Source: Neophaeotheca triangularis (lineage: Eukaryota). From it: DNA of 64,000 bases. The translations under genes were made by a program, and so were the position numbers. The stretch covers positions 186,001 to 250,000 of the forward strand of contig BAAIJX010000024.1 in NCBI GenBank assembly GCA_054600435.1, given 5' to 3'. Shown here in pieces: positions 2,240 through 64,000 of this stretch (positions are counted from its first letter, which is position 1; the number at the start of each line of letters is the position of its first letter). The notes under the pieces were generated by a model that worked only from the letters and a program-made list of their open reading frames with translations, ran no database searches and was not told where the DNA came from.

Positions 2240-2312
2240 CACAACTACACCCACAACCACACCCACAACCACACCCACAACCACACCCACAACTACACCC
2301 ACAACCACAACC
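2240..2312. repeat. (CCACAA/CCACAC)n hexamer tandem repeat immediately upstream of the ATG at 2313
   Basis: About 12 imperfect hexamer units read directly. Confidence 0.9.
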
Positions 2313-34854: not shown

Positions 34855-35250
34855 GGAGTGAGGGGTAAAATATCTGCGGCAAAGGGGAAAAGACAGGGCA
34901 AAGAGCTGGGGCAGGCAATGACTAGCGGCGAAAAGGCAAGGCATGATGGGAAAAAATTGAGGACGGTGAGAATAGCGAGTCGGTGGCAGACAAGATGGGA
35001 GCGATGACTCGGCTGAGAAGATCAAGTCGTAGATCCAGGTCGCTAGGAGTCGGGCCGTGGCGTTTTTCTGGGTTTGCTTGGAGAGGCTTTTGTGATACCC
35101 TTTTCGTTTTTTTTGGTTTCTTCTCTTTTTTAGCTTTTATGTTCCTTGCCGTGGTTTTGTTGTTGAAGGTTTGCCGTGTGGGTGGAGGGAGAGGGAGAGG
35201 TGGTTCAAAAGTTAGGGACGGCTTTTTTTTTTCTTACTTTTTCTATTCTT

Positions 35251-35274
35251 GGAATAGGAATAGGAATAGGAATA
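35251..35274. repeat. (GGAATA)4 microsatellite
   Basis: Read directly. Confidence 0.9.
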
Positions 35275-39890: not shown

Positions 39891-40214
39891 CTTGTTCTTA
39901 AATAAGCCTACTTACATACAAAAACTTATAGCTAAGAAATATATCACTTATAGGCATATAAGAAGATTAATATAGCTAACAACGTATTCATAATAATATA
40001 TCGTCTTAAAGTAGGTTAACTTTCTATTGTTAAAATTTGTTAAAATTTGTGTATAGTTATTCAAAAATGTAAGGGCCGTACTAGAAGTGTAGAACAACAA
40101 AAAATCGAACGATACCCTAGCGCTAGGAACAATTACAAGTATATGTATTATAAGACATAAGGGTAGTCAAAGTAGTACTACGTAGTCTAGGCTCTCTAAA
40201 CTCCCTAAGACATA

Positions 40215-40900
40215 CATTAACTACGCTATAACTTAGAGCATAGAAAGCGAGCTACGAAATGCCCTAGCCCTCCCTATAAGTAAGTAGTACGAGCCGACGC
40301 TATAGATACACTTAGAAGGTAAAGGCTTATCTAATCGCAGCTAGAGAATTACTCGATATCGTTAGGTAGATCCTCGAGTAGTAGTACTAAGTTCGTAGAC
40401 ATATTAGTTAGGAGATCTTAAAAAGTATTATAGAGGTAAGGAGAGACTTTATACCTTAGGTAGCCTTTATGCCTTCGATTATAGCTTAAAGAGCTTCTAA
40501 GATGTCCTATTATCCGTCGTAGCTTCTACGTTTAATAGCGCGCTTAAGGATAGCGACAGTTTAATTAAGGGTTACTAGTACTATAGTCCTATATATATTA
40601 CCTACTACCTCGGCGAGCTTAGGATCTTCCTCGCTTCCTAAGGCTAGTACGTCGATAGTAGCTTCGATAATAGCGCTAGTTCGAGCGTCGGTAATTTCTA
40701 GACTCGGTTAGATAATTCTAGGCCCTATAATATAACTAGAATTTACTATTAAAGGTAGTATAAGGCCTAGCTACTACGTAATATATAGAGTCGATATTTA
40801 AGCGGATCGAGGGTTTAGCTATTTTTAACGGTTCGAGCTAAACATTAAATTACTAGTAGTAGAATAGCGCCTAGGGCCCTATAACTACGACACGTCGGTA
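40215..40900 (-). pseudogene. RIP-destroyed gene of unknown function with an intron at about 40432-40384
   Basis: Frame LEITDARTSAIIEATIDVLALGSEEDPKLAEVVG...LEAL(Q)AIIEG interrupted only by TAA/TAG. Ends approximate. Confidence 0.5.
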
Positions 40901-41278
40901 AGTACCTAATTGCATAGTTTTATCGTGTTAAAATCAGGTACTACTAGCATGTTTAGCTCTAGACTACACCCTACTAATACTATTAATTATCCCTAAGGTA
41001 TAACCTATAAGGTTTACTAAGTACGGTCCCTTATTAATATAGTAAAGGCCGTACCTATATATAAGTCTAGTATTATATGTATTCTAAATAGGCATTTCCC
41101 TTATCTTCCCTATAATCGGAGTAACGCGCTAGACTAAATGAAGTAGGGTAGGTAACGTAGGGCTAAGCCTCTAGCGCGAGCTATACTAAGAGTAGATAGA
41201 GACTTTATGTCTATAGGTAGTTCGAGTCTTAAGGTAAATACGAGTATATAGGTAACTACTAACTAACTTAAATAGAAA

Positions 41279-41836
41279 ATGCCTCGTAAATTACTTGCTA
41301 GAAAACAGCTTTAAGGAAACTTCTGCCTATACGTTAAGACTATAGCCCTCTCCCTCTACTACCTCCCTAAAATGCTACCTTAGAAGGCTATAGAACTTAC
41401 TAGCCGTACTTACGTTAAAGATAACAACCTTATCTACCGCCTAATACTAGAATTCGCTTAAGGTCGTCGAGAAAGTATATTATACCTTTATATACTAACT
41501 AGAAGCTTTCGAGACTTCGTACTTAGCCTAAGCTTCTTTACCGTAGCTATTCTAAGCTAAATCCGCTATTATCGCTACGATAAACTTAGAGCTCCTATAA
41601 AAGACTACTAACGGTCTACCTTAACCTTCGTACTAATTAACGGCTAGGAACTAGAAGGTCGTAGTAAGCTTTTCGGTATCTTCTTCTAAGCTCTCGTAGG
41701 CCGTAAATATAATAGGAAGAGCCTTCTCTAGAGAGCTAGTAATAGAGTTAGTAGTTAGTTATACGAAAGGTTATAGGTAGTTAAACAGGAGGACTTACTC
41801 TTATAACAGGAAGTCGATACTACTACTTATCATTAA
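41279..41836 (+). pseudogene. RIP-destroyed gene of unknown function
   Basis: ATG CCT CGT... frame of about 185 codons with only TAA/TAG interruptions. Confidence 0.45.
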
Positions 41837-42802
41837 GCGCTAATACGGGGTATAGCTCTAGTATACTATAGCCTAGTTAGCCTCCTACGTAGTATCGGTA
41901 TAATACGCGTACTAGGCCGCGAATCCTATTCTATACCGTATCTTGCCTATAGCTTATATACTAGTAAAGTAGAGGGCTTAGGAAGTTAAGGGGCTATAAA
42001 GAGAATTTGTTATATTATAGCGATAATTATTAGAAGATAGTACTACTACTATAGCTAGTAGAAGTGCCGAGACCCTAGACGACTTAAGCTTAAGGTATAC
42101 TATCTAATCCCGAGCTAGAAGCGCTAGGTCCGAGAAGTTAGTAGTAGTCGGCACGGAGACGAATACGGGTAGTAGGGTTCTAGCTAAACGTAGGACGGCT
42201 AGGGCGTTAGTATAAAGCTCGGCCTAAGATCTAGTTAACGTCTAGGTCTCCTTAACTTTAGCCTTCTCCTCCTTACTAGAAGATAGCGCTAGGGAAGATA
42301 CTTTAGGAGATACTCGTTTAGTAAGAAAACGATACCGCGTTTAAATACTATACCTTAGCCTACCTAATACCTTAGCGATATCTACCTAACGACCTCCTTT
42401 ATCCTTAAATTACAAGATCTATTAGTCCTCTTCGTCTTTAAATACGCGCGCGCGGGTCTTTTACTTTTTACCTATATACTTAGCCTTATCCTCTTCGCGC
42501 TAGTATTAGGCCTCGTAAGATTTAGGAGTCCTACTAGGGAGCTAGTCTACGATAGCGGCCTAGCTTAGTCCCTACGTAACTCCCGCGTATAATATTTATA
42601 TTTTATTACTATCCTACTCTAGTCGACTAACGTTATACTATTTAACGTTAAGGATAGTACTTATTATAACTAAGCCTCGATAATTAGCTCCCGCTATATA
42701 TCGAGTAGTCGTAAGATTAGCGACGTTAGTTAGTAATTAGTCTATAGGCATTAAAGTGTCCCTAGGTTCGCTTTTTAAGGCTAGGGTAGGAGGTAAAGAC
42801 AT
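41830..42802 (-). pseudogene. RIP-destroyed Myb/SANT-domain gene (two repeats at about 42625-42320)
   Basis: Raw translation GLS*AAIVD*LPSRTPKSYEA*Y*RE and FKDEED**IL*FKDKGGR*VDIAKVLGRLRYSI*TRYRFL. Reversing transitions gives classic Myb repeats (LSWAAIADQLPGRTPKSCEAQY; EEDQQIL..K..G.RWVDIA..LGR). Confidence 0.8.
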
Positions 42803-42941
42803 AGAGGTAGAGGGTAAGGTAGGCGAGGATAAGTACTTCCGCTTTTTCGAAGAGTTAGCTACTAAACTAGCTAAGTTTCTACCTACTCGTATCCTAGAAT
42901 GCTCGACTAACGGCTAAGATATAACATGTAGATTAAATAAG

Positions 42942-45550
42942 ATGTCTAGACTTTAGCTAGAGAGTATACTAACTATAAAGGAAGAGGTTAGGGTATTTAA
43001 ATATTATTAGTAGAAACGTACTCTAGTAAAACACCTAGCGAATAATATATCTTACTAGGATACTCCTAGATCCTTCTACGAACGTACTAGGGATACTAGG
43101 GGAATAGAAGCTATATATCGGTTAGGCTACTAGGGTCTAGAAATGCCTTAGTAATATAGAGAGCCCTAGGGCCTTCTACTATAAGGCTTACTAGTACCGC
43201 GTAGGTATTACTAGAAGATTAAAACTACGGTAAGCTTTATCTAATAGCTCTTAATTATTTGCGATATAAGTCTTAGGCTACTACAATTGTTATACTCTAG
43301 TATAAGCGGCAATCTAGGCACTTTAGTATAGAAACTACTATAGCCCCTTAGTCTTTAATGTAGAAGTCGCTCTTTTTCTAAGGTATCTATCGCTCTATAA
43401 GGGGACGTTTTTAGACGTAATAGGACGCTACTATAGCGGAGTATAGGATTTAGAGGATACTTTAAGGCCTACGCTCTACTATAACCGTAAATAGTAGACG
43501 GAGAGAAGTACGGCTCGCTATAAGAGGTAAGTTTAGGAGCTAGATCTATAAGTTACTAATCTAACGAGGGATAGGGTACGAGTTCTCCCTATCCGACTTT
43601 ACTCTAATCGTACTATCGTTAGACTCTATGGATATACTACCCGAAAGTATCGCCGAGTTTAAGCTTATCTTATAGTAGACGAAGAAACCCGCTTAGCGCT
43701 ATATACGCTTCTTATATATCGATAGGAAAATGTGCTGGCTAAGCTAAGCTTAGCTTATCGATAGCTACGACGATAAGGTAGCGCGAAGGATACCTTATAT
43801 CTAGGTAAAGGGAAGTAATAGGGAAGGACGGACGATACTAGTAGACGGAAGTATATAACCTAACTACGAGGTCGTCGTAGTTATTATAGAAGGGCTCCTA
43901 GAGTAAATAGCGCTAGTACCTATAGCGGTATAGCTAGAGAAGGCGAATACTTCCTATAGGCTAGAACTAGTAACCGCTTAGGCGCTATACTAGATTTTAC
44001 CTTTCCTAGTCGATACTAGTAGTATGTAAAGCGTATTAACTAACCTGATTATGGTAACTCTTACCCCTAGTTCTTACTACTAGAATCCTACGACGGGTAT
44101 ACGATTCGATAGATAGTAGCCTTGACTTATAAGCTTACCTAACCTCCGTTTAGTAACTACGAGTAAGCGAGAGTAGACGTTAGACGTATTAGTTTTCAAA
44201 TTCTTCGAAGAAGTTAAGAGTATCCCTAGCTATAAAATCTACCTAAACCCTCTTTAACTAGCCTTATTCGATTTCTTTGTCTACATTCCTAGTATAGGCT
44301 AGCTGTCCTTCGAATTCAAATATTCTTCGAGAACGGTTATAGACACGATATAGGACATCCGAGAACGGCGCTACCCCTTTAGTAATACACGGGCCTAGAT
44401 TATCTACTACTACGTCTATATAGACAGCTATATCTACATCTCGCGCGACGAAGTAGATTATCGTTAGGCTCGAGAGGGTAGCCTTCTATCTAGGAAGCTA
44501 CCGGCCGAGTTCGTTATAAACTATCGCTTTAAAACTTTCCGCTACGCCCTTAGGTATATTAAGTTATATGTAGAGTAGGCTAGACTTACCGTAAATAGCG
44601 TAATCTACGCTATTCGACCCTCTAATACCTACTATAGCTTCGATTAGGATCTTATCGATAGTCGTCTTAACGATATACTCGAATCGTCGTTAGACCTTAG
44701 CCTACTCTAGAACCTTAAGTACACTTAACTAACTCTCCCCTAGGTAAGCGGTATTATTAACGATTAGTACGCGAGGCTACACTTTACTATATGTCTAGCG
44801 CTAGGGCCGGGTTATCCCTAGGCGACTTACGTATTTATCCGCTACTACTAGACTTATATAGAAGTGTATACCTACTGCCGCCGTAGAGTCTTACCCTTTA
44901 AGATAAGTTCTAAGCTAATCTAAGACCGCGAATACATCCTACTACGTTTAGAAGATTATACTTACCCTAGTAATATCGACCCTATATAGTACCCTATAGT
45001 AATTAGACGCGCCTAGTAGAGGAAGCCTACGGAAGGGGTACCTAAATTCTTTATTATCGGAAGTATCTTAGAGAGTACTATCTTAGAGAAGGTAGAGGTA
45101 CGCTCGTCGCTATATGTCTTTATACTATCTAGCTTTACTAAGCTCTCTACTACTAAGTAGAGCCTACTAGTAGCGGACGAAGTATAAAAGGTACGCGGAA
45201 GCTACTACTTTAACTATTCGGCGAGAAGAGAGCTAGATATAGAGGGTCTCGCTTAGCTAAGTAGGAGGGGTAGCGTTATTTTTAAACGAGTACTCTTAGA
45301 TAACGGCATTAATCCCCTTCGATATATTACTAATCTCGCCGACGGCGCCATTAATTGCTAGCTTCGTACTATCTTAGAGGCCTAAACTAACATTTCTATA
45401 TATAGTCGTACTAGCTTACCCGGAGCTAACCGTATGTTCGACCTAAGCGAGTACCGAACGAAGGTACGCCTCGCTATATAGGCTTACTAGGACTTTAGCT
45501 ATAAGTACTTTTGCTATAGAATCTTAGTATATACCTACTAATATTCTTAT
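42942..45550 (+). pseudogene. RIP-destroyed gene of about 830 codons with two PD-(D/E)XK-like motifs; introns 43230-43276 and 43527-43574
   Basis: Exons of 288 nt and 250 nt join in phase to a long third exon. Motifs SDFTL...IAEFK (43592-43663) and FDFFV...SFEFK (44267-44320) lie in one frame. The gene is well supported; the nuclease call is tentative. Confidence 0.65.
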
Positions 45551-45589
45551 TAGACGAGAAGATAGGAAGGGGCTTCTTATAGGGAGCTT

Positions 45590-46181
45590 AATTGTCGGTT
45601 ACCGGTAGAGTAAGAAGCTTAGAGGTATTAATGTTATACGATAGACTACATAATAGCTATATCGAGGTCATTACGTCCTTACCTAGCCTAGCTCCTATAG
45701 GTAACGCTACTACCGACTATCTTCGGCCTTCTAAGAGTTACGTTGTATCCTACCTATTCTACCTTACCCTTATCACTACTATTCCCTATCGCTAGCTCCG
45801 TATAAGAGGTACTACTTTAGGAGACGCTCTAGCTATCTTTATAAAGACGCTCGCTAAGACCTTTATCGAGCTCCTCTACCCCTTCTAGTAAGGCTAATAC
45901 CTAGATACGTAGATCATTAATCTAGGCCTCGTAGTCGCCGTAAGTATTATAGTAATCGACGTAAGGGTCCCCGGTGTTCTTATAATCCTTAACGGTTAGG
46001 ACATAGTTTAAAAGCTTACTATAGATCCGAGCGAGTATCTAGCGTACCTCCTTATTAATAGAGATATATGACTTAAAGCCCTATTAGTTAAGATCCCTAT
46101 AGAAGGTTATAGTAGTAGTCGAAATTATAGAAGCTACTAGAGACTTAGGAATCTTTAAGGATTAGTACTTATTAAAACATG
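45590..46181 (-). pseudogene. RIP-destroyed gene of unknown function
   Basis: Frame FKSYISINKEVR*ILARIYSKLLNYVL...INDLRI*VLALLEGVEELDKGLSERL. Confidence 0.45.
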
Positions 46182-46526
46182 CTTCTTACGGTTAATCTTA
46201 CTCGGAAGGCTACTAAAAGACGAAGCTATCTAAATGTAGTAGAAAGCTTAGGGTTAATTAGAGTAGTAAAGGATTATCGTCTTATTATTCTTTTCTATTA
46301 TAGGGCGAGGAAGCGGCTACTAATAACGTTAGACTCGTCGCCCTAATCGAGCTATACGAGACATTAGTAGATATATAGTTTAGTTACCCCTTATAATGTC
46401 TAGCTAGCTATTAAGACATAGGCGTATTAGTACTTTTAACAATGTTAACCAGATAAACTCGGCGTCTATCGAAGGATAGTCCGCAAATATCGACGGATAG
46501 TAACGGGAAAACTCGTAAGCTAAAGC

Positions 46527-46749
46527 TATAAGACCGAGACTATGACTCGGTCGGGATCACGGCGGAGCGAGGGCGGAGCGTAATAATGGTAACAACAGTA
46601 ACAGTCCTTTAATATAGAAACTATTCGATAGTAGATAGGATACTTCACTGTTAGCTATCTCATATACTTTCGCAGTATGTACGCTTAGCATTCCCGAGCT
46701 ACTCCGTAGCTTAGGCCGCCGATGTCCCGCTAGTACTACGGTCGTAACA
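46527..46749 (-). repeat. 3' LTR (223 bp)
   Basis: Aligns without gaps to 54068-54290. About 22 differences by manual count, all C/T or G/A transitions. Termini TA..CA here and TA..TA in the other LTR fit RIP-altered TG..CA. Confidence 0.97.
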
Positions 46750-46764
46750 ATTACCTCCCTCTCC
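46750..46764 (-). other. Polypurine tract
   Basis: Minus strand reads GGAGAGGGAGGTAAT immediately before the 3' LTR. Confidence 0.85.
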
Positions 46765-47463
46765 GGTAGCTCGTCCTCGAGCCGGCACTTATAAGCATAG
46801 TTATGCGAGATCCGTTATAGCGCGTATATCGGCATCCTCGTTAAAAACCTCGGTAGTGTCTTTACTAAGGAAAAGAGTAATACCGCGTACCGCTATCGCA
46901 CCGTCGGGTCCCTAGAGTGAATTTACCCTAAACCTGAGTTCGCTACGGCGAGGTGCGTTATCGTCGCGATAAGCGGTATTAACGGCTACGTGGCGGTGAT
47001 CTAGCGGAGCGGTAATTACTAGCGGAGCCTTAGCGTAATTACGCTATAATTACGCGGAGGTAACCTACTAGCCGCTTCTCTTTCGAAGACTTCCTCCTTT
47101 TAACTATAATAATAATAATAGCCTCTACTCCGTCGTAGTCCCTTCGGCATACCGGTTTGCCTTTTAACAAGGTGATCTTCTTTATCGGTAAGTGAACTTT
47201 AGTTCTTTATGTATACGCTACCGTCGGTCCGCATACGGTTCCTATTGTTCTTCGACAATGAAACTAACCTTACCTAGTTTCCTATTATTACCTACTTCCG
47301 GTAACCTTTCGAAAACCTTACCTAGCGCGGTTTAACAAAAAGGCGCTCCTCGTACCTCCGACACCTTCTTTCCTTCTTTATCGACTACTTTTTTCGCGAT
47401 CTCGCTATCGCCCTTTTTCGCCAGCTTTATTCACTACCTTTATTACTCCGCCGCTATTCTATT

Positions 47464-48805
47464 ATACCTCCGCGTGTTAGTAAGCGTCCGAAGGCGCTAG
47501 TCGACTATAGCGTTAGCGCTATAGCCGTTAACAGTAAGGGTACCTTTACTATAGATAGCGCGATTGTCGCTAAGGGAGTCTTTATGACTAAGGGCCGCTG
47601 TCGGATCGCCGCTAGTAGCTTTACGGAGGGGGAGTTAAAGGATCTAGTTAACGAGTCGAAGTCTACTAAGAAGGGTTTAAAGTCGGAGGGTATTAGTACG
47701 AAGCGCGCTACGGCCGTTAAGGGTACGGGCTCGAAACGTAAGCGTGCTAAGGGTAATAATAGTAAGGAGAGTAGGTCTAATAAGGGTACGCCGGCGTTCT
47801 ATCGCTTCGCCGACATCGATAAGGGTAAGGAGCTTACTCCTATCGATGTTAATCGCCCTCGTTATTCGCGCTACATTAAGGAGCTCTTAAGTAACGTTCT
47901 CGATAGGTCCGTCGACTTTTGTCCTATTATGTAAGACAGTGCCTTCCGCGACCGGATCGGTATACAATACCTACTTTAACGCGAAGTAATCGTACATCGA
48001 GGTAAGCCCGCTATGGCTCCGTCGTCGTTACGAGTTTTCACTAACGTCTCTTTAGATTATTCCCGACCTCGCTAGCTAGCGCCTCTACTATGTCTAGATA
48101 AACTATACCGCTATACTCTGTCGCGCTAACCGTGCCGGTAGTTCCGACGCTGATTCGCCGATATACCTTAAGGTCTTAGAAGTCGACGCTAAGGTCTCCT
48201 AGTACTTCTACAAGAATAACCGCGCCGTTATCCTAACGGGGGGCCTTCGTCGTTCCGGTCCTAATAACGATAAGATCTTGACTCCGTACGACATAGCACG
48301 CCTAATCACGGATTAAACTCGCGACTTCGCCACGATCGTTACCGATACTATCGAGAGACTTGTCGCTGTCTACCGCACGGAAATGTCCGTGCTTATCGGC
48401 GAGATGTCTAGCTACCGTCGCGCCGCGTCTTCTTCTTCGCTACTACGCGAGACTCCTAGTCTTAGTGAGTCGCCGCCTTACGATAAGACCGTTAGTACGC
48501 TAGCGCTAGTAGTAGCTCCTAAGGTACTAGCGGTAGAGACTAAGGGTCTAGTTCGGAAGAGTAGTAGGGGCGACGCCGGTACGCCGCTAGAGGTATCTTC
48601 TAGGGAAAGCTCTTCTTCGTTAGAGTCGGATAAGGAGGATAAGGCTCTAAAGAAGCCTTCTAGTATCTTAGGCTTCCTTAGGATACGCCGTAGGGACGAT
48701 ACCGCTCCGTCGGCGGGAGAGAATGCGGAGAAGTCTGTTAGTGCTAAAGATTAGCTACAGGCTAATATTGCTAATGTTACGAAGGAGTTAGACACTAGGG
48801 CTTAA
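47464..48805 (+). pseudogene. Extra antisense, spliced gene inside the retrotransposon encoding a putative six-Cys Zn-cluster-like protein; intron 48002-48055
   Basis: ATA(ATG) CCT CCG CGT start in frame with track ORF 47584-47934. A 1-nt frameshift in the T run near 47917-47920 and a GTAAGC..CTAAC..TTTAG intron join it in frame to track ORF 48383-48754. Confidence 0.7.
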
Positions 48806-48880
48806 GCGTTTGTCTAATCATTTGCGTACTCTCTATAAGCGCTATTATCCTGTCGCTAGCCCGTCCGTAGTAGCTATTAA

Positions 48881-51800
48881 TTAAGAAGCTTGTGTACTAC
48901 GTCCTTTTCCTACAGTTTTCTTCTTTTTCCCTAGCTATGTATTCTTAACATTCTTCTTCTTCGGGCTTTATGTTTTCTTTCCACGCTTCTTTTTCGCGCC
49001 GCCGTAGGTCCGCTAGTGTTACTTGAAGTCTACTATCGCTTCTTTCGCGTTGTTTAGATACTTCTCTTTCTCCTAGATACCCTCTTCTATTAGCTAATCT
49101 TTCTAAAGAACCTAGTACATCTTGTCGCCGTCGTCGTCGAGACCGGATACCGTTATTTCGTCGACAACCTATTCGCTACCTCCGTCGACTTCTCGCTCTA
49201 CTAGTAGTACAAAGTCGGCGCGTCGGTAGTATGGTTCGAGGAGAGAGACGTAGAAGATGTTATAGGTCTTTCTAAGGTATAGAGGTAGGGCTAATCGGTA
49301 TACTTGTTTTCCGACCCTTACGATAACTCGAAAGGGCCCTACATAACGCGAGGAGTACTTTTTAGTTAGTCCTAACGTTTTCAGGTTTTTCGCGGAAATA
49401 AGAACCTCGTCGTCGACACTAAATACCATAGGATCGTGTTTTCGGTCGTAGTATTCCGCCTACTTGCTAACGGCGTGCCGAATGTTCTCCTCGACGACTT
49501 CGCGAATTGCTTTCTAGTTCTTAGTTCTTTCTTAGAGGTCGGGGATTGTCGGTTTGCTGCCTCCCTCTCTAACGGCGTTATCCGTAATGCCGCTAGGCCG
49601 TTAGGGCTCCGCCCCGTAGATAGTAGAGAATGGCGACACTTTAGTCGATACGCTTACGCTATTATTATAGGCGAATTCAGCCTATACGAGGTAATAAGGC
49701 TAATCTGTTTGTGTAAAGTTAACAAAACATCGTAGGTACTATTCTATTATTTAGTTTTGCCTCTCCGTCTACCCGTTAGACTAAGGGTAGTACGCCGTCG
49801 ATAACTTGCGCTCGGTTTTCTAATACCGAAGGAGCTCTATCTAAAACGCGGAGGTGAATATACTACCTCTATTAGTTATAATCGATTTTGGCTTACCGAA
49901 CTTAGTAAGAATTTCGTGCTCGAAAATATCGGCTAGCTAGCGGGCCCCTATCGCTTCGCTAATAGGGATATACCTTACGAACTTTAAGAAGCGGTTAACA
50001 ATAACTAACACAGAATCGACTGTTTCGCCCTTATATGTCTCTACGACAGGCAACTTAACTACCATGTCTATAGACTAATGCTTAAAGATCTTATTAGTAC
50101 CCGGAACCCTTAGCGATTATAGTGCGCCGTAGGGCCGGTAGCAGCGCGACTTATGTCTTTAGTAGGTGTCATACCTAAGGACATACTCTTCGACATCCTT
50201 AGTCCACTTAGGCTACTAAAACTCCTTGTAGAAGACGGCTTTAGTCTTCCCTACTCCTAGGTGTCCTACTAATAGGTCCTCGTAGTAGTAGCTTAGCACG
50301 GCGGCCCGTAGGCTTTCTACTAGCGGCATATACACCTTTCTATTAATCTTAAGAAGTCCTATAAAACTAACCGACCACATAGGCGCGGCGCCGTCGGCGT
50401 CTCCGCGGTACTATCCCTCGTCGATCTCTTTACGAATGCGTTTAGTAAAGGGGTCTCCCTACTATACGCGTAACATATCCGCTCTAAGGTCGATTCGGTC
50501 TACCGCTACGTTAGGCTCTCTAGTGTCTAGCTCGGTAATAGCGAGTATACCTAGCTGCTTACCTACGGGGTTATAATAGGTCGGCGCTACTATAGCGATA
50601 GAGCTAGTCGGGTTTAGTTTACCTCCCCCTTAGAGCGTTCGCTTAGTATACATAGTATCATTACTCTAAAGCTTATTGTTTAGAGGACCGGTGTCTCCGG
50701 CAGCTATCGTGTAGCCCGCCGGCGAGGCGGCTAACGCCCGGTAGTTTACCGGCGCTATATACCCTAGCGACATAGATAGGATCTCTACTCTATCTTCGGC
50801 GGCCGTCTTACGGCTACTCGCCGGAACTTCGGCGGCCTTATAGTAGCCCGCTAGGGGAGCGAAAAGCCTAGTTAATGTAGGTAGTATCTCCGCCCTACTT
50901 AATTCTCTATCGGCCTCTATGTTAGGATAGCGCGAGAGCCCGTCTACTCTAGGGTTTGATTTACCTTCACGGTATATAATCTCGATATCGTATTACGATA
51001 GCTCTTCCGTAGCGCGCGCTTAGCGGCCTAACAATTTCTTTGTCGATAGGAAGTACTTTAGATTGTTATGATCTATAAGCACCTAAACTTTACTCTTAGC
51101 TAACAATATGTAGTGCCGCTATTAGCGCGTCGCCTCGACGATAGCGAGCAGTTCCTAATCGTGTACTAGATATCGCAACTCTAGCCCTTTAAGCTTCTTA
51201 GAGTAATATGCGACTAGATGCTATAGCGTGTCCGAGTGCTTCTACGCGAGTATACCTCCTAATGCGTATCCTAATGTATCGGTCTTAAGGCAGGTCTCTA
51301 GCGTAGCGTTAAAGTGCCGTAGTACTAGTGCTAAAATGAAGCTGTACTTTAACCTTTTAAAGGATTTTTAGGCATCTTTACCTAGTAGCTACCATTTACC
51401 GCCGCTATGCCGTAGGCAGTCCGTAAGGGGAGCGGTGATCTTTATATATCCCTCGATAAAGCGACGATAGAAATTCGCGAATCCTAGGAACACTTAGAGT
51501 TCTTTTAAGGACTTTAGTATCGGCTAATCTTGTACTACGGCTACCTATAGGGGCTCTATCGCTACTCTAGTAGAGTTAATAACGAAACTAAGGAATCTAA
51601 TCTCTCGGACCATGAACTCGCATTTCTCGAGGCTAGTATACAGCTTAGCGTCGGCGAGCCGACGGTAGACCGCTCGAACGTGTTCGTAGTGTTCTGCTTT
51701 AGTGCGGGAGTAGATAAGAACGTTATCTATGTATACTACGTAGTAGTAGTTAACTAGCTCTATGAGCACCTTATTAATAAAGGCCTAAAACGATGCCGGT

Positions 51801-52872: not shown

Positions 52873-54018
52873 CTTTCGGCAATTTTCTTGCTAGTAGCCT
52901 TTATTACTACACTTAAAACAAAGGTTTTCTTCGAGGGCTTTGTTGTTTCGTTCGCCACTATTAGTCGTACCCGTGCGGTTCACGCCGGTTACTAGTATTC
53001 TATCGGTACGCTAGCGGCGCGGTTTAGAGTTATTATCGCTTATGCTCTAGTTTTGTTCTCTTTTCCTATAGCTAGAACCTCTTAAGTCGGTCTTACGTAG
53101 CTTGTCCGCTATCTCGCCTCTAGCGTCCTAGCCGCCGCGGCTAGTATCGTCGAGGCGCGTGTAAAGCGCGACGAGGTTATGCCGGTTGTCCGGCACCGTC
53201 GGCTAGGTATTTAGCTTAGCCTTAAGATTTTCCTATAGACCTGTCTTAATAAGGGTAAGGAGCGTATACTCTAGTAGCGGGGCGACGTCGGCCTCGCGGA
53301 GGGAGTCTTCGACATACGAGAGGTAGTCGTGAATAGATTAGGTCGCTCCCTAAACATGTCTAAAACCTCGGAACGCTATATTTATGGCGCGGTTTTCGGG
53401 GTCGAGGATCTAATCTAGTAGCTATTCTTTAAACATAGGCTATTTTATCTCTTCGCGTTCGAGTCGTGATTCTTTACTCTCCTAGTTCTAGCCGACGCGG
53501 CCGTATAGGCGGCCCGCGGCATACTAGACACGCTCGTACTAATAAAAGTAAACATAAGGGTATGTCTTAAACACACGCTCGCATTACTAGATAAACGTCT
53601 GTGCTTTTAGGAGATTAGGATAACTCCTATAAACCGTTAGTTCGGCCGAGCGAAAAGCTTTCTCGATATCGATATGAGCCTTTCGCTCCTTTATCGTTAC
53701 GCCGGCAGGTAGATCTTTGTCTACCGTCTACTTACGTGCTACTAGGGTAGGGGCAATGTCCGCTAGGTCCTCCGGTTCGATATGTCCTCTTTCGGACTCG
53801 TCGTAGGGGACTATCGCTCTATCGGCGGCTCGCTAAATAGGCGCTATACGCTCTACTAATTGCTGTCGGAGTTCCGTAATAGCGGTAGTAAGGACTGTGT
53901 ATTAGTCCGTCGCCGCCTCTTCTTGTTCTTATAGGGTGTTGACTCCGGTTATAGTGTTAGGGGAGTCCGCTAGGTTAGCGTCGTTAACCCGAGGGCGTAG
54001 CGAGCGCGATAGTGCTAT
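52861..54018 (-). pseudogene. gag: gypsy gag with C-terminal CCHC zinc knuckle
   Basis: 386-codon frame from ATA(ATG) at 54018 ending LCFKCSNKG(H>Y)(W>*)QENCRKGKA*. Confidence 0.85.
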
Positions 54019-54067
54019 AATGTCCGAGCGAATCTTAACCTGAAAAGGTTCTAAGATCGAATAGAAT

Positions 54068-54290
54068 TATAAGACCGAGACTATAACTCGGTTAGGATTA
54101 TAGCGGAGCGAGAGCGGAGCGTAATAATAGTAATAACAGTAACAGTCCTTTGATATAGAAACTATTCGATAGTAGACAGGATACTTCACTATTAGCTATC
54201 TTATATACTTTCGCAGTGTGTACGCTTAGTACTCCCGAGCTGCTCCGCAGCTTAGGCCGCCGATGTCCCGCTAGCGCTACGGTCGTGATA
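54068..54290 (-). repeat. 5' LTR (223 bp)
   Basis: Partner of 46527-46749; followed by AAAGC. Confidence 0.97.
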
Positions 54291-54589
54291 AAAGCGTAAT
54301 AGCCGAGAAGTTAGTATACATTTATCGGCTACTTATATATAATGCGTAACACCTTAAATAGCTATATACGCTATATGTAGTACACGTTCTTTAAATATTA
54401 AACCGATAGCGATATATAGATTATGCCTTACGCTTATAGAAAGTAGCGGCGTCCGCCTACATTATGCCTACCGTTCCTATATACTTAGCCGCTATAATCG
54501 ATTAAAGAAACTATAACATTTAATTAAATAGGAGCCTATTTCTATTTATCCCTCCTCCGTTATACTAGCGTACTAACGAACAAGTCTAG

Positions 54590-55715
54590 TAGACTATACT
54601 ATCTAACGCTAATGTCCTAAGGGATATCCTACCCTTAGACCGCTTCTTCTAGTAGTAAACCCTATTAGAGTAAATGTCGCTATCGGTATACGATAGGAGG
54701 TAACGCTATAGCGATAGGGTTCTACTAGCTAACAAGATAACTACTATAGCGCTAAACGAGATAGCTATATACTATAGGCGAGGCTTCTTCTTCTACCTAC
54801 TACCTCGCGATATCTAGAGGAGAATAGTAGCTAAGAACTTCCTACTAAAGGGTAGAGTACCTCCTATACTAGGGTAAGTCGGGTACTTAACAATACGTTC
54901 TATAGTAGTATATTAGCTAATAGCTATGTAGTAGTACCTTATTCCTATAGATTATCTTTATATATTACGTTTAGGACGATACTTTACGTACTACGTTCCG
55001 TACTAAACCGTAGAGGTTACGAAATTTAAAGTATAACGCTATTATTAATCCGCCTACAAATGCGACTCCGCTATACTCGATATAGTTCGCCTCTTCTCCC
55101 TAAGTAGCTCTATATACGACACCGAACGCTTCGCTAGCCTTATTAGTAACCGAATTAAGCCTATACCTTACGGATACCGATAATTTAGCGAACGCTATCG
55201 GAAAATGGCCTAAGAAGAAGTAGATAATAGCTCTAGACATAGATAGTAAGCTAGACACTGCCCCTTACCTTTAGAACCTATCGAGCGTTACTAGTAAAAC
55301 CCGTCCTAGGCTAACGTCCCTTTAAAGTTTCGATTATCCTAGCCTTAAAGCTATCTATAAAGAGATCGTATATCGCTATACCCCGGTCTATAACGATAGC
55401 TTAAAGGCGACTCTACTTACTAGAAACCTTCGCGAGATACTTCCCTATAGAAAAGACCTAGACTATAGCTCGCCGCTTAGTATAGACGCTAAAAACGGGC
55501 TATAAGTAGTTAGGACTTCCGAGCTATAGTACTCGTAGGGTATCCGAACGCGTAGTATAGGGCGGTAACCTAAGGAGATAGTAGATAAAGAAGCGAAGGA
55601 GTAGGAGGGAAGTAGTATAGGTAGAATTAGTAGTAGAGGAGATAACGGAGTAAAGGCTACGAGTATTATGTTAATCGATCTTACTAAGGACGAGGATAAG
55701 GAAAAAGAGGTGTAA
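54590..55715 (+). pseudogene. RIP-destroyed gene of unknown function with an intron near 54874-54951
   Basis: Long frame ending ...MLIDLTKDEDKEKEV*; GTAAGT donor and GCTAAT branch retained. Start approximate. Confidence 0.5.
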
Positions 55716-55929
55716 TAATTAACTAGGGGTACCTAGGGCATACTTAAAGTATAATTCGTAGAGCTTTCTTTATACTTATACCTTACTTTATATAATGCTC
55801 GATTAAAGTTAGCTTAGTAATCTCGGACTTCCTTTAGACTATAAAAATTATAACTTCATATTACTTATCTAGGTATAGACTATAGTAACTACATCCGAGA
55901 GTTGATAAGGGGCGTTAGAACAGAAATGA

Positions 55930-56477
55930 ATAGTCTAGTTAAGCCTTATTATATAGTAGAGACGACCTATAAGGTTCTTAGCCGGATCTAGATTCACTAA
56001 TACCTATAGTTAGCTTCTTAACTCTTTAGGATTTGATTACCCTAACGAGAGATAACGTAGACTAGTACCGGGATCTTTCTTACTCGTTCGGCTACTATCG
56101 AAAAGTGATTTTAGGGCTATTCTACGCCTTAACGATATATTTAGACCTTTCTTATAGCGATATAATAGCTTTACGCGATAAGGTCTAGTAGGGCGGTTCT
56201 TAGTCCGGTTTTTATAAGCGTATATGTTATAAGGGTATAAAGCTCTAGGTCTACTACTTCGGAAGGGCTAGTTACCTAGTAAGAGGTTATAGGATGTCTA
56301 TTGTCGACGACGGAGCCGAGCTACCGACCTATAGTTCGACTACCCGTCGTTAACATAGCCTCTATATAGTAAACCGGCTTTTCGAGACTAGTTATGAATT
56401 CTAAGGCTAAACGGTTTATAGAGGGTCTATTTAATAGCTATAGCGGTCCGTTAAGTTCGTATGTCTCTATAGGCATT
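55930..56477 (-). pseudogene. RIP-destroyed gene of unknown function
   Basis: Frame MPIETYELNGPL*LLNRPSINRLALEFITSLEKPV... with only TAA/TAG interruptions; intron-like GTAATC..GCTAAC..TAG near 56040-56005. Confidence 0.4.
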
Positions 56478-56615
56478 TAGGCGTGACGTAGATACCGTAA
56501 GCCTTCGATGTTTTAGCTTACTTTACGTGTCTTACGACTAGAGTCTCGTACTATACCTAATAATATAAGAGTATACTAGTAGTATAGCTATCTGTACTAT
56601 AATCTCTAGAATACT

Positions 56616-57635
56616 ATAAAACGACGAGGTTAAAAACCCGGTATCGAGTCCTTCTAGACCTACTTCGAGATACTAATAAAGTCGAGCTCTAAAATCTTCG
56701 CTATTGTTTTAGTAGTTAGTACTAACTCGGAAACGCTTCTTAGCTATCGCGTAAACAGGTTCATTATATATAGAAACAGCGACAGTGTCGAAACCCTAAG
56801 AATTTACCTAGAGCTTCGTACGAATCTTTTAATAGGTCGCCTTAGCCTAGTCTTTAGTATACGGCGTATAGTAGACGTACGGCTCGAGCTAGGGGAAGAA
56901 TTAAACTATGGCGAAATCTATAACTATCATTTCTTTCTTACGCTTAATAAGCAAAATGGTCGTCTCTCTATTATAGACACCTCCTATAGATATACTTAGG
57001 TTAGTTATAGTCTATCGGGACCGTATATATGCCTAAGCTTGTCTACTTATAAGATCTCGGCTCCCGTTTACGTAAGACTTAGGTATAAGGTACATTACTC
57101 GATTAAAATCATTCCCACTATGCTCCCGAAATCGCCTATAGATAACGCTAATCTAGTCCGCTCGTCTATATACTTAAGTAGCGAGTAGCGGAGATCGAGC
57201 GGCGAGTAAAACTAGTAGGTCGAGCGCTATAGATCGAGTACGCGCCCCTATAAGTAGGTAGAGCGCTATAGGTCTAGTACACATTAGTATAAGTAGAGGA
57301 AACGCTATAAGTCTAGTATATACGAACCGGAGTAGTATAAGTATAGGCGCCCTAATATCGACTAAAGTAATACGCTTTAAAGATCTATACCGCCTATCCG
57401 ATAAGCCCGGCCTACGAAGAAGCTACTTTATTCTTATCTTATAGTGTTTCCGAGGTAAATTCCCCCTTTCTTAATTTGCTAGAAACCGGATATACTAATA
57501 TTAATTATAGTAATCTAGCTAGCTATTACTAACTACGGATCCGACGTCGTAATTAATACTATAGAAGGACCGGGGCTCGGGGTATAGAGCGATAAAAGAG
57601 CGGTTAGGCGGCACACTATATGTAATTCGTAGTAA
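56616..57635 (+). pseudogene. RIP-destroyed FHA-like domain gene
   Basis: LLIGR...VDVRL...HFFLTLNKQNGRLSIIDTS..T*V (about 56826-57002) follows the FHA GR/H/D-x-S pattern; intron near 57455-57510. Confidence 0.55.
57217..57322. repeat. 39-bp coding tandem repeat, about 2.7 copies
   Basis: Units begin at 57217, 57256 and 57295; each encodes ERYRSST-like peptides. Confidence 0.8.
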
Positions 57636-57699
57636 GTAAACAAATGTACATGTTATATAGCGAGCGTACTCTAATAATCATAACACCTTCCTAAACTAA

Positions 57700-59250
57700 A
57701 TAATTAGCTTTAATAGCTACGCTATAGACCGTCTAACAGCTTTACGTATAGCCTAAGTACGAGGACTAGGCTACTAAAGTTATATAGTGCTCCGAAACAA
57801 TCTAGTCGTCTATGTATAACGCTTAAATGCCCTTCTATAGAACGCATCCTTAGCTTTTAGAGGCGTTCGGCTCTCTTCTAGAGGACCGAGAATGCTTCGA
57901 GCTAGCTAGTATAGTTATACTAGAGTTTAGAGGCTCTAGTAGTAGTAATAGTCTTTAACGTAAAGACCCTGCTATTACCCGGCTCCTCGAAAGGGTTAGC
58001 CCGTACATTTAGTACTCCGTCGACGTCGCTAAAAGTTAGAGCTCTTTCGATACTAGCGAGTTCTAGGCCGAAAAAAGATTGTTCTACGAAGCGGAGATAT
58101 ATAGAGTCTACCTCCTCTTATATTATAGGCAAACCTTTACCGTAGAGGAAGAAGACTAGATTAACTAGTAGCTCGACGCCTACCCTCTAGTACTACGAAG
58201 GGCGATAATATAGTGATTTATCTTATATCTTTACTAGTAAGTTAACGAGTGTTAGCGATCCGTAGTCACTATTACTTATACTCTAGTATAGTTATCCCGA
58301 TTCTCTTAACTCGGTCGGCTAACGTACCCGTTTATAGTATTTAACGTACTAAAACTTTAAGAAGTAGAACTGTTCGGGGAGACTAAGGACGACTATCGTA
58401 AGTCGGTAGGAGGGGTAGGGCGGTAGGCCTTAGTAGCTTATAAGTTTTCGGGATAAGTAGTTAGAATAGTAGCTCGCCTCGCCGTAGCTTTACCTAGGCA
58501 ATATACGCTATTATTAATGTAAAACTCTAGTTATCGTAGTATTTAGGAGCTACGAAAAGACAGGCCCGTCGGTGTTTTAAGGTTATATTAGTTTTAGATT
58601 TATAGGAGAGACTTAGGTAGCGTTCGAAGGTTATTTGTAAACATAGTAGGCTAGTCTCTAAACTACTCCGACTCTATCCTCGACCTAATACACCTAAAGA
58701 TACTCCTATATCCTATACCTCTTATATAGTAGCTAGTATCCTTTTAAAGATTAGCATTATACCTATAGAAACCCTATAATAGCTATAAGCGTTTAGACCT
58801 ACTACCGCCCCTTTACTCTTCGTTACCTATAGTAACGCTACTTCTAGCTACTTCTACTAGAACGGTATAAGCTAAGTCTCCTAATTCGGTAGAGGCTTTA
58901 GTCTTAGGGGGTTTGTCAGTCGTAAGAGAAGCGTCTTACTTATAGTAGTAGCGATAGTACCCGAGCTCTTCGTACTTATCGACGACCTTTATATCGATTC
59001 TTAGCGACTAGTCCGAGTTAAGCTATATAGATATTTGTAGCTTTAGCGTACTACGGACATGTTAGCCGTCTTCGGTTAGCTTCTAGGTAGTAAAGACTAT
59101 AATGTTTTCGGTAGGCATTATAAGATAATTTAGTTACCTATAAAGCTAGTTAGTATAGCGGGACATCTTATGTACTTCTACCCTATTTACCTTTTAATTA
59201 CTTACGAAGTCTACTTAGTAGAGATAATAAGCCCTTACTTCCTATCGGAG
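57700..59250 (-). pseudogene. One or two RIP-destroyed genes of unknown function
   Basis: Frames such as VGVELLVNLVFFLYGKGLPII*EEVDSIYLRFVEQSFFGLELASIERAL and LRIDIKVVDKYEELGYY. Boundaries uncertain. Confidence 0.4.
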
Positions 59251-59490
59251 TAGCTATAAACCCTCTATAACTATAAAGGTAAAGGGGAGAGGGAAGGAAG
59301 TTTCCTATACGTTATAAAGGTATAGAGTAGAAAGGAGTCTTTTTCGTTATAGTAAACCACTACGACATTAGTATAATAGAAGACATATTGTAATAGCTAT
59401 TATTATTAGCGATATATATGTAAGCGACTCCCTCGCTAAATTATACGAACCTTAGTACTAAGAATTCTAGAACACTATAGTAAAATCAAA

Positions 59491-59943
59491 ATGTAAACAA
59501 TCCTACTCCTTACTATCGCTATACTCGGTTTTATTAGCATTATACTAACTATCGCTCTAGCTATACTTCGTAATATTATCTAGTTCCTTATAAACCTAAT
59601 TACCGAAACCCTAAGCCTCTACTACTACATAATCACGTAACCTAAATTCTAGGAGGGAGTCTTTAGAGTATATAACAAACTACTACAATTTAACGCGAGC
59701 TTTATCGAGCTACCCGTCCCTATCGTCGAATATGTTAAGTAGTAGTAGAGAACTAACCGTAAACCGCCCCCTAACCGTCTAAGCGCCTAATCCTAGTATT
59801 AACTACACTACGAATAGCGCCCGAGGGGACATTAGTAATTATTAGGAGGTAATAGTAAGGGTTCCTATATAGAGGAGGAATTTGTCGTTTAGGGACTTAG
59901 GGATCGGCATATAGGACGACTTAGTATCTACGAGAATGTTTAG
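59491..59943 (+). pseudogene. RIP-destroyed small protein with N-terminal hydrophobic segment
   Basis: ATG TAA(CAA) ACA ATC... translates to M(Q)TILLLTIAILGFISIILTIALAILR. Confidence 0.45.
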
Positions 59944-61600
59944 CGTTTTTCTTAAGATTAACTAAGGATCTATAGCTTCCGGGGTTCTAGGCGTTATTCC
60001 TATCTAGGGCGAGGGAGGATAGGAGGCTAATAGCTTCTGTTATAGGCCTTAGCCTCTTTCCTACTCTTAATCTAGTTTAGCTTAAAGATCCGGGTCTATA
60101 TAAAGTTTAATCTAATTATAGGAACCCTAAGGTAGTCTAACTCGCCCCTAGTTAACTTTAGACTAAACTATCTAGAAGATACTTTAGCTAGAAATTCTAG
60201 TATCTATAAATTACCTAGTCTAAAGCGTACGTGCCCTATAAAGGCTACCTATAACTCCTAACTTTAAGCTTTATAAGCGTAACGCTAGCCCGCCTCCTAC
60301 GAGCTGCGCTCGGTATATTAACCGAGCTTAGCCTAATACTAAAGGAATATGTCCTCGTCCGTCTTAATACATAAGTTAAAGTTATCCGTAAGCTACTATA
60401 AAGTAGCTAGCTACGCTATATTCGGCGTAGTTATACCCTAGGGATAATAGGATCCTCGTCGTACTTAGACAGCTATAGCTTACTAAACTTAGGGGGAGAC
60501 AGTTAAGCTAGACGGAGTAATAACTAGTATACCGCGCGGCCCTACTAGGGGGCTAATCTAAGTAGAACACGGTATAGTCGCTTAATAAGGCGTGATATTA
60601 AAACGAGCGGACCGTAATAGCCCGCGCTATAGAAGTCGCGACGTAGATAGGCTACTTAGCTAATAGACGAAAGGTATAGAGGCTATAAGTACTAGCTCTA
60701 CGTCTATATAGCTTCCTCTTATCTAGTAAGAGGCGAGGCCTCTTAGGTAGCGTATCGCTAGAAATACGCGTAAAATGATAATAGTTAGAGGCTATAGGGG
60801 GAGCTAAATAGCCTTATCTATAAAGGTTAAGGTAACGAGCTCGGGTTCCGAGGCTAGGATGCCCCTACTAAGCTTTATAGAGACCTATACTAAGGTAATA
60901 CGAGGTAGATTTACTAAGACGATAGCTTAGCGCTTAACGGTAGTAATAGCCTTCGTAGGCTATAATACTAAATTGCTACTAGGATTAGACGCCTCGATAA
61001 GGTAAAGTAAGAATTTAACAAACGAAGAGACACTTATTCTATTTAATTAACTATTAGCTTCCCTAAACTCTAGACCCGATAAACCGCCGGGCCCTTACCT
61101 TTCTAAGGAGTATTCGTTCTTAAGCTTAAGTAGCCTAAGTACAAAAAACTAAAGCAAATATCCCGGTATAGCCTAACCTTCTATATATCTTATGTTAAGG
61201 TATATCGCTTTACCTAAAAACCTAAGATCGACGAGAGACTATAGGAGGTAGGCAACTAGTAGGTAACTAGCGAAAGCCCTAATGACGATAATAAAGTACT
61301 CTACCGCGTACGTTAATACTAGCTCGGCAAATAACTAGTACTATTAGCGAGATTTCTACCGTAAGGGTCGAGAAGCTCTACTAACCTTTTTACTTAGTTA
61401 AGCTATACGCGAGCTAGTATTCGAGTAGTTACTAGTAGCAATGTTAGCGTTAATGCGCTTAAGTTTAGTAAGTCTTTTTTCCTAGCTTAGGGGTATAGGA
61501 GCGCTAGCGGGATTTAGTTGTCGTAAGACCGTAGCGGTGCTTTAAAAGGTAGCATTTTTATGTAAGACTTAGTAGTGTTCTAGTAAACGAATGTTTCCGG
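59850..61600 (-). pseudogene. RIP-destroyed gene of about 500 codons, unknown function, intron near 61098-61041
   Basis: GTAAGG..GCTAAT..TAG intron followed by a long frame interrupted only by TAA/TAG. 5' end uncertain. Confidence 0.45.
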
Positions 61601-61749
61601 CTTAGCTAGTCGAGGGCGTAATAGGTAGTATAGAGGTTAATAGCATCTTTAAGATAGACTCGTCGCTAAAGAATTAGTAGAGCGCGCGCCTAACTATTAT
61701 AGTTATGTAATTCGGGGCTACGATAATAAGTTATACTAGATTAGCTAAG

Positions 61750-63395
61750 CTAATAGGCTTTAAAGTTACGTGCTAGAGGTAGGTAGAAGAAATATTGTAG
61801 CTACCCTACTATAAAGAAGCCGCTAATACCCCTATACTTCCTATTATAATCCGTTAAGACAAAAGGAAGCGGCTAGATATTCTACTAAAGATAAGAGCTA
61901 TATAGAACTATTATGATTAAGCATATAGAGACTCGCTCGTATCTTATATTATCTAAGGTAGTAAGCTACTTCGAGTTTAAGTAAAATACGCGACCGAGAT
62001 TATTATTAAGTACTAAAGATAGGCTATATAAGTCTAAAGTTTCTCCCCTTCGACAAGTAGACTATAAGATTTCTAGAACATGATATAGCTATATATACTA
62101 GGTAACGCCTAGGCGGAAAACGCACTACCCTCGACTTACTACTCCGCTTATTAGACGATAAAACTGTAAGTCGTAGCTTATTAACGTAAAAGAGATACTT
62201 ACTAACTCTATAGTAGCGCTTTAACTAACTCGTAGCATATAATAAAGATGTCCTTAACATCGAATAAAAGGCTAAATTGAACTAGCTTAGTTACTACTTC
62301 TAAGAGCTAGCTATAAGTATCGAGGATAGTTCGGAAGACGAGTTATTAGAAGGTAGAAGGAAAGACGTAGGGGAAGGAAATTCGAGAGGCGATAGTAAGT
62401 AGTATAGGAAACGACCGCTCGAAGACTTCGGTAATAGTACGGCGAAGAGACGAGCTATAGCCGTTAAATAATCGGTCGTATAGAGTAAGCGAAATTAGAA
62501 GGGAGGTACTAAGAAGAAGATGAATAAGGAATAGAGTCCTATTAACGCTTTTTAGGGCTTTACTAGCGCTAGGGGCCTTTAGACACTACCTAGTAGTAGC
62601 TAAGGTAACTCTACTCGGGGTAGTCGTAATATATCGCCTTAGTCTACCGCTTCGAGCTATTAGTCTAGTATATTACGGCTAAAGTCGCTCTCGCTACCCG
62701 AAGGCCTACTAATAACGGCCTAAGGCGAGTACGTAACCGTATACACTTTCCTCTTTACTAACGATATTAGAGTTAAGGGTTTCGCCCCTATTAGTAGTAC
62801 CTATACGAGTAGAGATACGTTTATAGATCGGTATCTCTATACGCGGTAGCTTTATAACCATAAGGAAAAGGATTACTCGCGCCTATACTTCTTATTACTC
62901 TAGTATTATGACATAGTAAAACTGATTTACCCTTAAGGCTCGGGTCGTATTAGGAGTAGAATAAGGGAGGTTCTTAGGGCTATTTTAGAAGAAAATAATA
63001 GTGGCGTTAACCCTAAAGACATTATCGACGACATTGTTAAGTAGAGCTTATACGGTAGAAAGATTAACATCTTATATAAGAAGTAGGGTATAGGATACAT
63101 CTTTTTTCTAGCTAAAGTACTAAGCGAGAACTTATAAGTCTTCCTTAATTTCGCTAAATACTACCCTTAGCTTACTAATAGCGATACTTATAGCCTAAAG
63201 AACATGTTTATATCTTCTAGAGATACTTTTAAAGAGGCTATATAGTACCTTAGCGACCTAGGCCTCTATAAGATAGCATAAGAGGAGATAGTAGCTAGCC
63301 TCGCAAATAAGACGCGAAGCCATTTCATTAAAGAGTTCTAAGAGGGGTTTAAGAAGATGGCGGCAGATGCGGAGAGCTCGAGTCACGTAGGCTAG
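61750..63395 (+). pseudogene. RIP-destroyed gene of unknown function; introns 62166-62213 and probably 63134-63193
   Basis: GTAAGT..CTAAC..TAG intron; NLS-like RKRPLED; C-terminal VK*SLYGRKINILYKK*GIGYIFFL; second donor apparently mutated to ATAAGT. Confidence 0.55.
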
Positions 63396-64000
63396 TAGTT
63401 AAAGTTCACGGTCCCTACTTCATGTTATGTAGCCTTAGGATGTAGAGACACACGTATCGTAATATAGAGTTATTAGCTAGGGTCGAGTAGTGAGTGTAGA
63501 AGTGTGTCGCTAGTAGGTCTAGAGTGGCTAGCTTCTAAATTGCTATAAAGAACGGATCGTCTAAAAGTGCTCCACGCCTACTACGTCGCCCCGGGCCGAA
63601 GGAGGGAGACTTTAGATTACTAACTACTCGCCCGAACTATCCGTATACGTTCATTTTGTCATGTATACTATGGCGAAAGTTTTGACAGAGCTTTTTCGAC
63701 TACTAGAGTTTAAGGCGAATGTTCTTTTTCGACTCGATTTCCGTAAGTGTCTCTTTATACTTCTTAGAAGAGAGATTAATCCCTATACTTATAGTAGGCA
63801 CGACGCTAAACGCCTTCACGTTATCATCGATTATAACCCCTAGCTGCTCGAGGCTCTCGAGAGCTTAACCGAGCGAATTAACATAGCCCGCGTTGTCGTT
63901 CAGTAGGCTATCGACGGCGGAACGGAAATCGGGGGAGTTTAAAGTGCTAATAATTAAGTAGGAGAGGTAGTAGGCGTCACTATGCCTAAGCTAATCGGCG

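Follow-up and report, generated by a model that had tools for sequence, protein, structure and literature searches.

What was the DNA that has been destroyed by repeat-induced point mutation (RIP, the meiotic C-to-T defence against duplicated DNA) in the right-hand part of a 64,000-nucleotide stretch of the Neophaeotheca triangularis genome (assembly GCA_054600435.1, contig BAAIJX010000024.1, positions 186,001 to 250,000 of the forward strand)? The whole stretch is called the window below, and positions are counted from its first letter. An initial annotation, made from the letters alone, had described the DNA from about 40 kb onwards as a RIP-mutated, multicopy mobile unit of about a dozen former genes with a nested gypsy retrotransposon. 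It had proposed that this block was either the distal end of a Starship, a fungal giant element whose tyrosine-recombinase 'captain' (DUF3435) would lie beyond the window, or a different giant element. We find that the block is RIP-saturated DNA, that it was continuous before the gypsy element inserted, that its left part exists in a second version in the same genome, and that it held a gene for a Myb/SANT-like DNA-binding protein. A large, low-copy, cargo-type mobile element, i.e. a Starship of which the non-captain end is in view, or something similar, appears to be the most likely single origin, a reading that we favour tentatively.

Two kinds of DNA meet at about 40 kb in the window. Positions 1-39000 contain genes as is ordinary for a fungus and have a GC content of about 0.53, which falls sharply to 0.37-0.42 at the block. 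The customary RIP thresholds are about 0.89 for the TpA/ApT ratio and about 1.03 for the (CpA+TpG)/(ApC+GpT) ratio. The two ratios were 1.76-2.49 and 0.09-0.45 in the one-kb intervals of 40001-64000, all 24 of which carry the signature, and 0.39-1.15 and 0.93-1.49 in the 39 intervals of 1-39000; the claim of a RIP-mutated block is thereby borne out. In intervals of 300 nucleotides the bias begins to climb at about 39400, within the unique flank, and reaches saturation at about 40100, with TpA going from 5-10 to 44-52 and CpA+TpG from 42-45 to about 20. Leakage of the RIP-type bias thus affects about 0.7 kb of single-copy flank ahead of the repeated block, and the final 300 bases of this zone (39800-40100) contain only 28% GC. 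On the other side the signature is weaker from about 63200 and still present at 63701-64000, from which it follows that the block runs off the window. Throughout 40101-64000 the dinucleotides CC+GG are also depleted (8% versus 14% in unique DNA) and CT+AG enriched, which would reflect either C-to-T mutation beyond the CpA context or a different ancestral composition.

The nested element lies where the initial annotation had placed it and has the pair of long terminal repeats (LTRs), the 5-bp AAAGC target-site duplication, the minus-strand pol and the order of reverse transcriptase (RT), RNaseH and integrase that are typical of Ty3/gypsy. It is RIP-mutated and filled with stops, but otherwise unremarkable. 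With stops read through, its pol matched RVT_1 (E 2.3e-33), RT_RNaseH (1.8e-25), RT_RNaseH_2 (1.2e-22), Integrase_H2C2 (2.1e-8) and SH3_Tf2-1 (7.2e-14), and all 22 differences between its LTRs are transitions. Since the target-site duplication is intact, the two parts of the block, 40101-46526 and 54299-64000, were contiguous before the insertion. CpA+TpG make up 13.5% of the dinucleotides in the unique part of the window, 4.2% in the gypsy element, and less again in the left and right parts of the block (Table 1). The host block therefore underwent more RIP than the element nested in it.

The copy number of the block was approached through the contigs of public sequencing runs, which were searched with 36501-46500. 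One run (X1) held 0.90 of the words of this query and is probably the source run. Contigs were aligned to 34050-54049 at a likeness of at least 80%, a region that covers the left part of the block and most of the gypsy element but not the right part; the number of versions obtained in this way is a lower bound and refers to the left part and to the contigs listed. The unique flank is represented in X1 by a single identical contig of 12.5 kb, with no second version, which stops at 40143. Together with the 300-nucleotide bias profile, this stop makes the change from unique to repeated DNA a sharp one, at about 40.1 kb. Inside the block the contigs listed are short, and one identical contig is accompanied by one co-terminal contig that differs at 59 of 566 letters (42826-43389), 66 of 562 letters (43672-44233) or 48 of 542 letters (45566-46099). 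These second contigs are 9-12% diverged, and transitions account for 1637 of the 1724 places that vary in X1. The left part of the block thus has a second, RIP-diverged version in the same genome, and this duplication explains why the block was subject to RIP. Of the term "multicopy" in the initial annotation, the part that stands is repeated DNA with at least two versions; a number above two does not emerge from these contigs.

No contig joins across the block. The summed contig depth (121 for the flank, 272-333 for the left part of the block and 2100-4200 for the gypsy element) was rejected as an estimate of copy number, which it does not measure. A second run, X2, has the same organism label as X1. 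In the flank it differs from the window by 2.3-2.5% (19 of 824 and 24 of 959 letters); near 40.1 kb its contigs come to an end, and none was found on 40720-46055 at the same likeness. This gap was not counted as absence of the block from a second strain, since a gap is no proof unless a contig joins its two sides. A third run, X3, bears the same label as well, yet even with the unique flank it shares one 92-nucleotide piece, with 17 differences.

The gene for which we found support is a minus-strand open reading frame (ORF) whose opening methionine lies at 42802, exactly one of the two divergent starts given in the initial annotation. Its second Myb repeat matched PF00249 at E 1.9e-4 (21.9 bits) and, in a tile of the translation, at E 8.7e-5 (23.0 bits), for a Pfam cut-off of 24.4 bits. 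A phmmer search of 1.84 billion representative proteins returned 11 matches at E of at most 1e-3, none of them at 1e-10 or below, and mostly to residues 120-240. Nine of the ten matches that were scanned are multi-repeat Myb proteins aligned to this same stretch, and those with a name are fungal hypothetical proteins. The tenth (P0004, 494 residues, without a Pfam match) showed 25% identity over 335 residues in BLASTP, with an E-value of 1e-12 for the pairwise comparison and of 8.5e-6 library-wide. The homology with P0004 spans 42730 down to 41816 and includes a shared motif well outside the Myb repeats. Because this alignment extends past the repeats, the ORF at 42802 is a real former gene.

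The family of this gene appears to be a very small one. A word-index protein search with the ORF found nothing, and P0004 retrieved only itself from a word index of 5.8 billion proteins. A scan of metagenome contigs by profile alignment with P0004 gave no relative, and the best match of P0004 in a sequence search of the PDB had an E of 0.8 and fell on the Myb repeats. An AlphaFold model of P0004, built from a two-row alignment, had a mean pLDDT (predicted local distance difference test) of 35.5 and was unusable.

The remainder of the approximately 16 kb outside the gypsy element was scanned with Pfam in two forms. Twelve long frames from a six-frame translation of both flanks of the gypsy element, with TAG read as Q, gave only matches that were taken as noise, e.g. 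DUF6115 (E 0.014) and SLD5_C (E 0.099). When TAG was read as W, the six long frames of the left flank were without any match, so that the Myb repeat was lost as well. Indeed, the Pfam match to Myb disappears in a read-through frame of 2141 residues and is present, at E of about 1e-4, in pieces of 430-600 residues taken from that frame. Small domains in RIP-biased DNA are therefore under-reported when whole frames are scanned. For this reason both flanks were divided into tiles, 78 in all, about 400-430 residues long and non-overlapping, such that a small domain across a tile border could be missed. One tile contained a credible domain (Myb_DNA-binding), two gave matches taken as noise (KleE, E 0.0044, and DUF7883, E 0.003) and 75 were empty. 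RT, integrase, DDE transposase and helicase domains were found in neither the long frames nor the tiles, in agreement with the initial annotation, which had recognised no transposase, RT or helicase here. The RVT_1 domain of the gypsy element, recovered by the same read-through procedure, served as a positive control. Simulated saturating RIP on the window's own genes altered 24.6% of the residues, 5.6% being turned into stops; large domains should therefore stay visible, while small ones may not.

For the number of genes the outcome is quite different from the roughly twelve proposed: one, the Myb-like gene, is supported, and a credible domain is found in one of the 78 tiles. The longest open frame in the two flanks has 113 residues, and stops make up 8.1-11.4% of the codons in all 12 long frames. 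Three composition tests were applied, i.e. codon log-odds (trained on the window's genes after simulated RIP), stop density and GC periodicity. On host genes with simulated RIP they produced antisense false positives, and only 5.7% of the intervals were periodic. These tests are powerless after RIP and speak neither for nor against twelve genes, and therefore any gene count here depends on homology. The phase-consistent introns that had been noted could not be confirmed. The tiles contained neither a nuclease family nor an FHA domain, which leaves the "tandem nuclease-like" and "FHA-like" genes without a counterpart. A blastn comparison blind to transitions (letters reduced to purine and pyrimidine) of the block with the rest of the window, with the gypsy element and with itself gave only matches of chance size and a 39-nucleotide repeat; hence the block contains no local copy of the neighbouring genes and no tandem gene copies at the DNA level. 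Apart from the LTRs, the block has no internal or inverted repeats of 40 nucleotides or more. The plus-strand stretch 61500-63710 looks protein-like by eye, and neither Pfam, nor a PDB sequence search, nor a word-index search with 61500-63500 gave a match; for the plus-strand stretch 44183-45499 a PDB sequence search gave none either. It appears that gene content is hardly readable once RIP saturates, and that genes counted by eye in such DNA are not to be trusted.

How might such a block have arisen? In the reading that we favour, the approximately 16 kb outside the gypsy element is one continuous piece of DNA, which was present in at least two copies in the lineage of the strain and was mutated to saturation by RIP as a consequence of that duplication. 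The gypsy element inserted later and was mutated less heavily. The piece is of low copy number, not an accumulation of ordinary high-copy transposons, and near its left edge there was at least one gene of a host-like type, the one for the two-repeat Myb/SANT-like protein. It may have originated as a large cargo-type mobile element whose second copy came from a move of its own or from a cross, and that would be a Starship seen from the non-captain end or a similar giant element. The Myb-like protein may then have been an end-binding helper, as has been proposed for the MYB/SANT genes of Starships. Both the duplication by transposition and any role of the Myb-like protein are what we infer from this arrangement.

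The likeness to Starships lies in a block that is large, of low copy number and not built from classical transposon proteins, with a Myb/SANT-type gene less than 3 kb from its edge. According to PMC12256816, 23% of the non-redundant Starship-like regions have a MYB/SANT gene at the edge that lies opposite the captain and in reverse orientation to it, and a further 9% contain a MYB/SANT gene without a captain. The destruction by RIP is a likeness too: PMC10104507 reports a Starship in two copies that was destroyed by RIP in crosses. PMC11162782 places the captain's transcription start no more than 7 kb, and usually no more than 2 kb, from its own edge, and PMC9156397 describes the captain's position and orientation as always conserved. 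On these accounts, with the captain starting near its own edge and the MYB gene in the opposite sense, both genes point inward.

Several observations weigh against the favoured reading. The Myb-like ORF, 1-3 kb from the left edge at about 40.1 kb, is transcribed toward that edge, i.e. outward; on an assumed position of the captain this orientation does not fit the published Starship pattern. DUF3435, DUF3723, patatin, ferric reductase and NACHT/NLR domains were found in none of the 12 long frames and 78 tiles, so that the block shows neither captain nor accessory marker in the window; the accessory markers are frequent in Starships, though not obligatory. The Myb match itself remains just under the Pfam cut-off (23.0 versus 24.4 bits). 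Beyond the Myb repeats, P0004 is the only relative that the sequence searches gave, so that the protein looks like a near-orphan, which is not what would be predicted for the widespread MYB/SANT family of Starships. Finally, two versions could equally be expected from a plain segmental duplication. Of the initial proposal of a multicopy mobile unit there stand the duplication, the lack of known transposon proteins and the Myb gene near the edge; the missing captain and the orientation speak against the Starship part. That the gene set resembles selfish-element machinery, as also suggested initially, comes down to the Myb gene. We regard it as possible, though doubtful, that the block is the distal end of a Starship proper.

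A plain segmental duplication of an accessory, lineage-specific region, immobile in itself, with RIP striking both copies and the gypsy element arriving later, is the strongest of the rival explanations, and unlikely without being far-fetched. It would account for the two versions seen among the listed contigs of the left part, and the absence of a recombinase, a transposase or a terminal repeat from the block within the window is what it leads one to expect. The orientation of the Myb ORF, which misfits the published Starship pattern, is no difficulty for it, nor is a single supported gene whose product looks like an ordinary DNA-binding protein and has very few relatives. It is less at ease with the sharp change from unique to repeated DNA at about 40.1 kb, and a comparison that disregards transitions shows no similarity between the block and the remaining 39.9 kb of the window, which argues against a local tandem duplication. 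A mosaic of old, unrelated transposon relics, their proteins too decayed to be recognised, is improbable. Fungal RIP islands are mostly graveyards of transposons, and the large RIP-affected regions or AT-isochores of ascomycetes are usually transposon mosaics; the block resembles them in its sharp drop in GC, its extreme excess of TpA and its nested LTR retrotransposon. Composition gives no positive sign of genes, and the depletion of CC+GG (8% versus 14%) would, if mutation went beyond CpA, allow more to be hidden. However, the block differs from such regions in that RT, integrase, DDE transposase and helicase domains occur in 0 of 78 tiles and 0 of 12 long frames, whereas the gypsy element is still recognised at 1e-33. 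Moreover, places in the left part are covered by two X1 contigs each, among those listed, against up to 14 on the gypsy element, and the lack of repeats other than the LTRs is likewise not that of a mosaic.

It is also conceivable, with a low probability, that the block represents a new kind of giant, low-copy element whose machinery lies outside Pfam and of which the Myb-like protein was the DNA-binding component. Such an element shares its evidence with the reading that we favour, and the absence of every Starship marker from the 16 kb, the non-canonical orientation of the Myb gene and its near-orphan family would all suit it. Positive evidence for an enzyme is nil, absence from RIP-wrecked DNA counts for little, and if the block does belong to an element, the greater part of that element is beyond the window. 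In its most specific form, to which we give just as little credence, the window would hold one end of an undescribed giant element with an outward-pointing, near-orphan Myb-like end-binder and a mobilising enzyme other than DUF3435, killed by RIP soon after its second copy arose. Among known elements, PIF/Harbinger transposons have a Myb-like DNA-binding gene near the element end, an analogy that is also drawn in PMC12256816. They differ from the block by their DDE_Tnp_4 transposase, as neither this nor another DDE domain was found in any frame of the 78 tiles, and by their size, which is far below the 16 kb or more of the block. The least probable explanation, and a very remote one, is single-copy DNA that was mutated only through RIP leaking from the nested gypsy element. 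RIP does leak, as in the unique flank at 39400-40100, but the flanks of the gypsy element are more heavily mutated than the element itself and are saturated up to 9.7 kb from it, and the second, diverged version in X1 contradicts this explanation directly.

Even in the best case, the favoured reading of a Starship-like cargo element would add another example of an already known kind of element. A captain at the far end would make the locus a natural example of a Starship destroyed by RIP after its duplication, which has already been shown experimentally (PMC10104507), and also a case of unusual MYB/SANT orientation. Conserved ends without a captain would point to a second kind of fungal giant element, and this would be of real interest.

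The features of the block and its surroundings are collected in Table 1. The left edge, at about 40.1 kb, has no inverted partner within the window. In the unique part to its left, Pfam identified a Fungal_trans transcription factor (31693-34851), an HD_3 protein and a HAUS6_N protein. The two ORFs nearest to the block, 36694-37665 on the plus strand and 37047-37778 on the minus strand, had no Pfam match, and the RAD55 neighbour named in the initial annotation was consequently not confirmed at 36694-37665. The window contains no tRNA and no Rfam family, 5S rRNA included, and therefore the edge of the block does not lie in a target site of the 5S type.

Table 1. Positions of the block, the Myb/SANT-like former gene, the nested gypsy element and adjoining features in the window
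Feature	Position	Strand	Evidence or remark
Former gene for a two-repeat Myb/SANT-like DNA-binding protein	41816..42802	-	start M at 42802; 3' end perhaps at ~41195
Second Myb repeat, stretch matched by Pfam	42329..42442	-	PF00249, only with TAG read as W
Transition zone in the single-copy flank, RIP-type bias increasing	39400..40100		300-nt intervals
Left part of RIP-saturated low-copy block	40101..46526		CpA+TpG 1.7%; Myb in 1 of 30 Pfam tiles
Right part of RIP-saturated block, continuing past the window	54299..64000		CpA+TpG 2.4%; 0 of 48 tiles credible
Nested Ty3/gypsy LTR retrotransposon, RIP-mutated, less so than the host DNA	46527..54293	-	LTRs, pol domains
LTRs of the gypsy element, 224 nt each	46527-46750 and 54068-54291		direct repeats, 90% identical
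Target-site duplication AAAGC, left copy	46522..46526		sequence match
Target-site duplication AAAGC, right copy	54294..54298		sequence match
Gypsy pol (protease-RT-RNaseH-integrase), stops read through	49022..52801	-	Pfam
39-nt tandem repeat, 2.7 copies, 79% matches	57214..57318		Tandem Repeats Finder (TRF) score 110

Single positions of the gypsy element are covered by up to 14 different contigs in X1 and up to 35 in X2, and the family is multi-copy in both of these runs. Contigs of X1 also show rearranged copies, with joints from 48842 to 46529 and from 54049 to 46529, suggestive of tandem copies or solo LTRs at other sites of the genome. In the right part of the block, one plus frame of the 39-nucleotide tandem repeat reads as a repeated unit of 13 residues.

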